In this document: in pieces, positions 15,001 through 18,000 of the stretch
Layout of the letters: each line of letters starts with the position of its first letter
Numbering within the stretch: position 1 is the first letter of the stretch
Source: Escherichia coli
GTDB taxonomy: Bacteria; Pseudomonadota; Gammaproteobacteria; Enterobacterales; Enterobacteriaceae
Assembly: GCF_017348835.2 (NCBI RefSeq)
Contig: NZ_CP072312.1
DNA length: 64,000 bases
Strand: one strand, 5' to 3'
Position numbers: made by a program

Positions 15001-18000
15001 TTCATCATTGATGTGTTCGCCGGATACATCGTGGGATGGCAGGTCTCATCATCCATGGAAACAACATTCGTGCTGGATGCACTGGAGCAGGCGTTGTGGG
15101 CCCGTCGGCCGTCCGGCACAATCCATCACAGTGATAAAGGTTCTCAGTATGTATCGCTGGCCTACACGCAGCGGCTTAAGGAAGCCGGATTACTGGCATC
15201 AACAGGGAGTACTGGCGACTCGTATGACAACGCGATGGCGGAGAGCATCAATGGTCTTTACAAAGCGGAGGTAATACACCGTAAGAGCTGGAAAAACCGG
15301 ACAGAAGTGGAACTGGCCACACTAACGTGGGTGGACTGGTATAACAATCGACGATTGCTGGAAAGGCTGGGCCATATTCCTCCGGCAGAAGCAGAAAAAG
15401 CTTATTATGCTTCCATCGGAAATAATGATCTGGCAGCCTGAGTTCACAGATAAAACACTCTCCAGGAAACCCGGGGCGGTTCATCCAGCACGAATGTCGT
15501 TTCCATGGACGATGAGACCCGCCACCCCACGATGTATCCGGCAAACACATCAATGATGAACGCCACATAGACGAAGCCCCGCCATGTGCTTACCCAGGTA
15601 AAATCAGCCACCCACAACTGGTCTGGACGTTCTGCCACGAACTGACGGTTTACGCGGTCGCATGCGGCAACGGCTTTCCGGCTGACGGTAGTGCGGACCT
15701 TTTTACCCCGGAGAACACCGGCAAGTCCCATAACTGCCATGAGGCGCGCCACTGTACATCTGGCCACTCTGATACCTTCCCGTAACAACTGACGCCAGAC
15801 TTTACGCACACCGTATACCTGGTGATTTTCATCGTATACGCGCTGTATCTCTTTCTTCAGCCAGTCATCGTGCTGCGCACGGGCACTGCGTTTATCCGGA
15901 TGATGTCGCTGTTGCTGACAATGGTAATACGTTGACGGGGCAATATGCAGTTCGCTGCATACCGGTCCGCCCCCGTACTGCTCACGCAGCTTATCCAGCA
16001 GTGGCATTATTTTTTCCAGAGGCGGTCGAACTCCGCCTTCGCAAAATAAGCGGAAGCCTGGCGAAGGATATCGTTACTGCGGCGCAGTTCACGATTTTCA
16101 CGTTCCAGCTCTTTCAGACGCTGACGTTCAGCGGTGGTGAGTCCACCATCACCACTCCCGGTATCCCGCTCATGCTGGCGAACCCAGACACGCAGAGTCT
16201 CCGGCGTACAGCCAATCTTTGGGGCAATGGAACAAATTGCCGCCCACTGTGAGTCATATTCATCCTGACTTTCCAGAACCATACGAATCGCCCGCTGACG
16301 GACTTCGGGGGAAAAACGAGTATTTTTAGTCATCCTGTTTACCTCTTTCTCAGGGAGTTTAGTCTCCAGGATTTCCGGGGCGGTTCACAATGCTGAAAAA
16401 CAAACATGCATAATAAGTCACAATTATGAATTGTGATTTCTTCTATAAAAAAGAGACCACTGCAATATGTGATCTATTGTATTATTTCATAATTGTTAAA
16501 GCCACTTCACAGTATGCTCACATTGTACGGATATATTCGTAATGTTTTTTATATCGAATGAACGACAGAAGTTGTGGAGATTTTATGAAAGTAATTAGCA
16601 TGAAATTTATTTTTATTTTAACGATTATTGCTCTTGCTGCTGTTTTTTTCTGGTCTGAAGATAAAGGTCCGGCATGCTATCAGGTCAGCGATGAACAGGC
16701 CAGAACGTTTGTAAAAAATGATTACCTGCAAAGAATGAAACGCTGGGACAACGATGTTCAACTTCTTGGTACAGAAATCCCGAAAATTACATGGGAAAAG
16801 ATTGAGAGAAGTTTAACAGATGTTGAAGATGAAAAAACACTTCTTGTCCCATTTAAAGCTGAAGGCCCGGAGGGTAAGAGAATGTATTATGGCATATACA
16901 ATTGTGAGGAGGGATATGTTGAATATGCGAATGACTAATACACTGTTATAAAGGCTGCATAAAAAGGCCGGAATCCCGGCCCTTATATTATCGCTTACCA
17001 CTTTCTTTAATGTGAATTTCACCAGGAAGCAGTATCTGGTACTCTTTACCAGAAAACATCGCCCCGAGCCTTGTGAGCGACTCTCCGATGATGCCACGGT
17101 GAGTGCTGGCGTTAAAATCGTATTTATCATCATATGAACGAACAACGCCTGTGCTGGATATAATTGCTCATTCTGTTGTTGATAGATAATAACTTTATCA
17201 AGTAATTTAATACTATCCATTCCATTAACTCTTTTTAAAGATAAAAACTGTATCATAGTTTGTTTAAATAACATAGATAATCTTTACAAGATCATTTCAG
17301 AAATCTATATCATATAAAAAGCCAATATGTTATTTATATACTAACGTTCACGTAAACTTTCATTAATAGTTTCCTTTAATGGACTAAGAAGATAGCTGAT
17401 AACACTACGCACCCCGGTTTTTATTTCTGCCATAACAGTCATTCCAGCTGTAACAGGGATTTTTTTTCTTTCTCCCTGTATATCATTCCGATCAACAGAT
17501 ATAATCACGTTAAATACAAGCCCTGTATCCGGAACAGAAACAGAATCTGCAGTTATATTTTTTACTTTCCCTGTAAGGTAACCATGACGTGTATATGGAT
17601 ATGCATCTACTTTAATAACGACCTCCTGTCCAGGTTGTATAAAACCGATATCCTTGTTAAGTACAGATGCTGTTACTTCGAGAATATCATTATCAGGGAC
17701 AATAATCATCAGCGTTTCTGCTGTTGTGACAACACCACCTTCTGTATGTATATTTAACTCCTGAACAGTACCACTCACAGGAGCTTTAATAAAAGATGAT
17801 GCTTTTCTCTGCCTGTTTTTTTCAAGCTCATGCTCCAGCAACACAATGTTATCTGTTGATTTTCTGTGCTTCTCGATAATTTCACTTCTGAAGATATTCG
17901 TCTCCAGTGCCAGTTCTTCCCGCACAAGTTCTATTTCTTTTTCAAGTTGAGAAACCTGTGCAAGCCAGACTGCATGTTCATTTTTTGCCTGAATATAGCT

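Follow-up and report, generated by a model that had tools for sequence, protein, structure and literature searches.

What is the small open reading frame (ORF) that lies between an IS629 cluster and the enterohaemolysin operon on a plasmid of Escherichia coli, and what keeps it there? We addressed this in a 64,000-nucleotide stretch of contig NZ_CP072312.1 (assembly GCF_017348835.2), here called the window, which is a plasmid of the pO103/pO45 type; among its best matches are NC_013354.1 (pO103) and pO45-1 of strain 2000-3039. The ORF at 16585-16938 was originally predicted to encode an orphan 118-residue membrane-anchored protein of no recognisable family, situated between the haemolysin operon and the IS629 cluster. 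The location is borne out, with the gene on the + strand between the end of IS629 (16387) and ehxD (17341..18780, - strand), and the ORF is real, although it has 117 codons and the figure of 118 is reached only by counting the stop.

Identity of the ORF

The gene and its boundaries are as follows:

16585..16938, + strand: cmi, 117 codons plus stop, with the ATG at 16585 and the stop codon at 16936-16938

A GGAG Shine-Dalgarno motif is positioned at 16576-16579, 5 nt 5' of the ATG. Annotated cmi genes of RefSeq plasmids have exactly the same DNA as 16585..16938 (100% identity), which argues that this is a real gene and not a chance ORF. When positions 16340-17340 were searched against PLSDB with megablast, a 100% match was found in the E. 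coli 2011C-4315 plasmid NZ_CP024480.1, where PGAP labels the ORF 'cmi: colicin M immunity protein' (WP_000864811.1), and the product of the window ORF is identical to this RefSeq protein. Among PDB sequences, the product matches 4AEQ (95/98 residues identical, 97%; E 8.4e-65) and 2XGL (E 5e-61), which are the two solved Cmi structures. A profile search, proposed earlier as a check, gives a match to the Pfam YebF-like family PF13995 (34.2 bits, E 2.4e-8, profile positions 4-88 of 89) above its gathering score of 27 bits. A family is thus readily recognised, from the near-identity to the crystallised protein, the Pfam score, and the PGAP label alike, and the statement that there is none has to be withdrawn. 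NCBIfam has no dedicated Cmi model, and the product gives only sub-threshold matches to YebF models there; for NF041240 ('YebF_not_Cmi') it scores 41.1 bits, below the equivalog cut-off of 110, and missing this model by so wide a margin fits Cmi rather than YebF.

From these comparisons, 16585..16938 is identified by sequence as cmi, the colicin M immunity gene. In this plasmid type it is an ordinary and already annotated feature, a known gene in a known configuration.

The Cmi protein and its allele

The predicted topology, a single N-terminal transmembrane helix followed by a charged soluble domain, was right. The best 19-residue Kyte-Doolittle window covers residues 3-21 (mean 2.57) and is the sole strongly hydrophobic stretch, and the protein beyond it is charged. 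The reference Cmi has 117 residues, with an inner-membrane anchor at residues 1-23 and its soluble part in the periplasm, and it has a fold and a cysteine pair in common with YebF (PMC8469651). The Cmi of the window is predicted from sequence to be built in the same way, with residues 1-23 as inner-membrane anchor and a periplasmic YebF-like domain. Features reported as essential in Cmi are the DsbA-dependent C31-C107 disulfide, E113, Y114, and the acidic cluster E81/D82/E83 (PMC8469651), and we found C31, E81, D82, E83, C107, E113, and Y114 all present at those positions.

Three substitutions (D96E, M104I, and H106N) separate the window Cmi from the crystallised sequence, and only M104I and H106N separate it from the allele of the ColBM/ColV plasmid pO83_CORR; the two genes differ by three synonymous and two nonsynonymous changes. 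M104I is present in all of the ehx-linked cmi alleles examined, with H106N additionally in the pO103/pO45 type. Plasmids pO145 and MBT-5 encode a Cmi with M104I only, and the ColBM reference alleles have M104 and H106. Codons 104 and 106 fall within window positions 16894..16902, and H106N stands directly before the essential C107.

The truncated colicin M gene and ehxD

To the right of cmi, the following features are found:

16966..16981, both strands: GC-rich hairpin, shared bidirectional cmi/cma terminator (terminator scan and folding)
16988..17149, - strand: truncated cma (colicin M) pseudogene, codons 219-271 plus stop
17149..17274, - strand: 5' fragment (42 codons) of the regulator-like gene found after ehxD in EHEC plasmids
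17341..18780, - strand: ehxD, last gene of the enterohaemolysin operon (ORF list, and annotation in identical plasmids; included as context)

The GC-rich hairpin that had been reported after the ORF is indeed there, with a 6-bp all-GC stem and a 4-nt loop inside the 49-bp gap between the convergent cmi and cma. Folded on the - strand (the cma side), it has a 9-bp stem followed by UUUUUAU (-20 kcal/mol, z -2.62), compared with -15 kcal/mol and z -1.34 on the + strand, and in this folding model the terminator looks stronger on the cma side. The hairpin is identical in ColBM plasmids.

Translation of 16988..17149 gives GVVRSYDDKYDFNASTHRG...KESGKR and a stop, corresponding to residues 219-271 of full-length ColM (from the ColBM-type locus L002). 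The first 218 codons, which encode the N-terminal part, are missing from this 53-codon stub; it has no start codon, and an in-frame stop lies directly upstream, so the colicin M toxin gene is dead. The stub still holds the D226-R236 catalytic motif, and PGAP labels it as a pseudogene ('lipid II-degrading bacteriocin, incomplete, missing N-terminus'). The intact 271-codon cma of a functional colicin M producer, with its TonB box and its receptor-binding and catalytic domains, is not found at this locus. The term orphan in the original prediction is thus apt for an immunity gene that has lost its toxin, but not for a protein without known family.

The neighbouring fragment at 17149..17274 is labelled 'hypothetical protein / transcriptional regulator, missing C-terminus' by PGAP. 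We note that a 153-aa ORF at 16813..17274 (- strand) runs through 42 regulator-like codons, then the cma stub out of frame, and then antisense cmi; because the regulator fragment is fused out of frame to the stub, this ORF is a spurious chimera of no biological meaning. A comparable ORF in AP019709.1 carries the label 'colicin-M'. Beyond the fragment, ehxD is convergent with cmi, which lies 402 bp from the ehxD stop codon.

IS629 and the region upstream of cmi

The left flank is made up of these features:

13765..16387, - strand: IS629 (IS3 family) cluster, from a BLAST comparison of the window with the IS3-family elements annotated in NZ_CP024480.1
13765..14173 and about 15484..16387, transposase on the - strand: outer IS629 copy, split by the inner copy
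14174..15483, + strand: inner IS629 copy, inserted inside the outer one
16007..16333, - strand: IS629 orfA (ORF list)
16388..16413, + strand: last 26 bp, the 3' end, of a site-specific integrase/resolvase gene (resA-like), from comparison with locus L007
16414..16584, + strand: native cmi upstream region, presumed to contain the promoter of cmi, from alignment to ColBM-type plasmids

The right terminal inverted repeat of IS629 ends at 16387, with the terminal sequence ...CCGGGGCGGTTCA. In L007 the integrase coding sequence ends at locus position 2526, equivalent to window position 16413, and the match to the window starts at 2501, equivalent to 16388; an intact integrase gene stands before cmi in ColBM-type plasmids and in other EHEC plasmids. 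Judged by this alignment, the rest of the integrase gene is removed at the IS629 boundary 16387/16388. Not one complete RefSeq E. coli genome reaches a coverage of 80% over window positions 12500-17400, and the best matches to this interval are pO103/pO45-type plasmids, which are without the inner IS629 copy.

Between IS629 and cmi, 3 to 6 mismatches and small indels distinguish positions 16388-16584 from their counterparts in two ColBM-type plasmids (L002 and L008). The cmi gene is reported to have its own promoter (PMC8469651). Our promoter search of the + strand upstream of cmi found no strong or convincing sigma-70 consensus. The sole candidate is a weak hybrid at 16384..16414, with a -35 element (TTCACA) that spans the IS629 end and its flank, a -10 element (CATAAT), and an unfavourable 19-nt spacer. 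The cmi sequence and promoter were reportedly described by Oelschlaeger and Braun in 1987. With IS629 197 bp 5' of cmi, distal promoter elements could have been removed. The conserved interval between the integrase stop and cmi also contains a perfect 8-bp inverted repeat, TCACAATT-atg-AATTGTGA, at 16419..16437 and a terminator-like hairpin at 16454..16475; the repeat could be an operator, and the hairpin could be the integrase terminator.

Origin and distribution of the locus

In ColBM-type plasmids the gene order is integrase, cmi (+), cma (-), and cbi (+), and a 49-bp gap separates the convergent cmi and cma; the order integrase, cmi, and convergent cma is that of pO83_CORR and of an Escherichia albertii plasmid. 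The window shares ColBM-type plasmid DNA over 16388-17149, and from 17148 rightwards it has the same sequence as is found downstream of ehxD in pO157 and other ehx plasmids. These alignments place the boundary between the ehx module and a ColBM-type IncFIB backbone at this locus. When the window was compared with the 10-17 kb around cmi-cma of L002 and L008, only 16374/16385..17149 matched, so ColBM sequence is not seen to border the ehx module on each side; the window contains no stretch of cba or cbi from these two loci, neither of which has an annotated cba. A segment comprising RepFIB and a recombinase, at window 41218..43870, is equivalent to 1688..4342 of the pO157 locus (L003). In pO157 it lies directly past the regulator genes downstream of ehxD and in the window about 24 kb away, which shows that the two plasmid types have been rearranged relative to one another at the cma junction.

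The boundary at which the cma stub gives way to ehxD-downstream sequence has two variants (window 17128..17156; L004, about 4571-4660; L005, about 4720-4810). The window/pO103 variant reads ...GAACGAACAACGCC / TGTGCTGG... and retains 10 bp more of cma; that of pO145 and MBT-5 reads ...ATATGAAC / ATTGTAAAAGAAGATGTTCC / TGTGCTGG... and retains 20 bp more of the ehx side. Speculatively, both could go back to a single ancestral join at a TTGTAA microhomology that small deletions then altered; a search of PLSDB with a 79-nt sequence built to represent this hypothetical ancestor found no record that covers it.

Among 5426 complete E. coli genomes, full-length cmi DNA is present in 635, the 5' 650 bp of cma in 438, and the whole segment from cmi through the cma stub to the ehxD flank in 169 (on pO103/pO45/pO145-type plasmids); cmi next to ehxD is absent in pO157 and pJNE151685-1. 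The Cmi encoded at 3273..3626 of L011 (pO45-1 of E. coli 2000-3039) is identical to that of the window (WP_000864811.1). In keeping with the plasmid name, we take this strain to be the O45:H2 reference strain of published colicin-cocktail tests, which PMC6465592 lists as CDC 00-3039.

The reading that we prefer, with a probability of roughly 0.9, is that cmi is the surviving orphan of a ColBM-type module, that ehx joined inside cma, that IS629 later removed the integrase gene, and that the remaining role is defensive only. The starting state would have been a ColBM-type module in the order integrase, cmi, cma, cbi, and cba; the ehx module would then have joined this backbone inside cma at codon 219, and the left-hand integrase gene would have been removed by IS629 in a later step.

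Function of the orphan immunity gene

Colicin M, a phosphatase that cleaves lipid II, is imported via FhuA/TonB, and protection by Cmi is titratable (PMC8469651). In the mechanism that we propose, Cmi would insert into the inner membrane via residues 1-23, with its YebF-like domain in the periplasm and held by the DsbA-dependent C31-C107 disulfide. Periplasmic Cmi would neutralise imported colicin M before lipid II is reached, probably by direct, titratable binding in which the E81/D82/E83 patch and E113/Y114 may be involved. Since cma is dead, the sole plausible role of cmi is defence against colicin M of other strains. We infer that cmi is expressed and still protective, and support for function comes from the retention of the 197-bp upstream region, the Shine-Dalgarno motif, the terminator, and the essential residues. 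By analogy with the characterised protein, the EHEC host is likely to be immune, or less sensitive, to colicin M from competing E. coli.

The alternative that survives best, although we consider it rather unlikely, is that cmi is present by descent as a neutral relic, silent or non-protective through an IS629-disrupted promoter or an M104I/H106N-weakened protein, and persists because the junction is young and the virulence plasmid successful. The cma stub has 0-1 differences from ColBM plasmids in 162 nt and cmi has 5 in 354 nt; with the dead stub as conserved as cmi, the intactness of cmi may reflect recent origin rather than selection. The promoter search, with no clear consensus upstream of cmi, and the two nonsynonymous changes beside C107 are also what a relic would be expected to display. 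The same can be said of the broad activity of colicin M reported for a Big-7 STEC panel (PMC6465592) that includes CDC 00-3039, a strain with the identical Cmi. However, the ORF, the Shine-Dalgarno motif, the known essential residues, and the native 197 bp upstream are all intact, orphans with the same truncation occur on plasmids that differ in size, serotype, and origin, and immunity genes are generally constitutive in expression, all of which speaks against a relic.

In a more ambitious form of the defensive reading, the plasmid lineage of non-O157 EHEC would actively maintain orphan cmi against colicin M-producing commensals of the bovine gut, and the M104I and H106N allele would alter how strongly or how specifically it protects, to a degree relevant to ColM-based food antimicrobials directed at Big-7 STEC. 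We regard this as unlikely.

That cmi is an accessory factor of the enterohaemolysin, a small membrane protein affecting EhxA secretion or activity as the original prediction implied, is very improbable. The one point in favour is that cmi lies no further than 402 bp from the stop codon of ehxD. But cmi is on the opposite strand and convergent with ehxD, a terminator and two gene fragments lie between them, the sequence and synteny of cmi are those of the colicin BM module, pO157 and other plasmids with the same ehxCABD operon have no cmi, and most cmi copies adjoin an intact cma on plasmids rather than ehxD. Least probable of all is a YebF-type secreted or carrier protein in place of an immunity protein, a reading that draws on the Pfam YebF-like match and on the fold and cysteine pair common to Cmi and YebF, but that is refuted, as to YebF proper, by the failed NCBIfam cut-off (41 versus 110 bits) and by the 97% identity to Cmi itself.

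Significance and comparison with known systems

The locus holds little new biology, in that databases already contain the gene together with its structure, mode of action, and occurrence on these plasmids, and orphan immunity genes with shared truncated toxins are a published phenomenon. It does mark how the ehx module and a ColBM-type IncFIB backbone came together. There is also a modest practical relevance. Antimicrobial blends proposed against STEC include plant-made colicin M, and an apparently intact ColM immunity gene is carried on many non-O157 EHEC plasmids, including that of the panel strain CDC 00-3039, with a possible effect of cmi on colicin M-based control of non-O157 STEC. Per-strain ColM activity is reportedly given by Schulz et al. 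in 2015.

The closest known system is the cmi locus of pColBM-type plasmids. Their Cmi (ImM; UniProt P18002, an accession that PMC6723558 cites for cvaC too) resembles that of the window in its 117 residues, its membrane anchor, its cysteine pair, and its essential acidic and C-terminal residues, and the loci are alike in the upstream region, the convergent cma, and the shared terminator. They differ in that the partner cma in the window is cut to 53 codons and the upstream integrase is replaced by IS629. The pO103 (NC_013354.1), pO45-1 (NZ_CP101303.1), pO145_122715_1 (AP019709.1), and related non-O157 EHEC plasmids carry cmi with a truncated cma, as the window does, and in the pO103/pO45/pO145-type plasmids the gene is already labelled cmi or 'colicin M resistance protein'. 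In the pO103/pO45 type the junction and the protein are identical to those of the window (the protein identity being shown for pO45-1), and the window differs by the extra IS629 nested in the flanking one. In the pO145/MBT-5 type the cma stub is 10 bp shorter, the ehx side extends 20 bp further, and M104I is present without H106N.

More broadly, a plasmidome survey counts orphan immunity genes on 243 plasmids, with 46 in the peptidoglycan-inhibiting class; some of the plasmids have heavily truncated toxin genes, with the same truncation common to distinct plasmids, and the authors argue that orphan immunity genes are retained for defence (bioRxiv 10.1101/2024.11.06.622277). The window fits this pattern, with immunity kept and the toxin heavily truncated; the survey is statistical and is not known to describe the ehx-adjacent cmi locus. 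Finally, YebF of E. coli (PF13995) is like the Cmi of the window in fold family and in its conserved disulfide, but it has a cleavable signal peptide, is exported, and is not an immunity protein.
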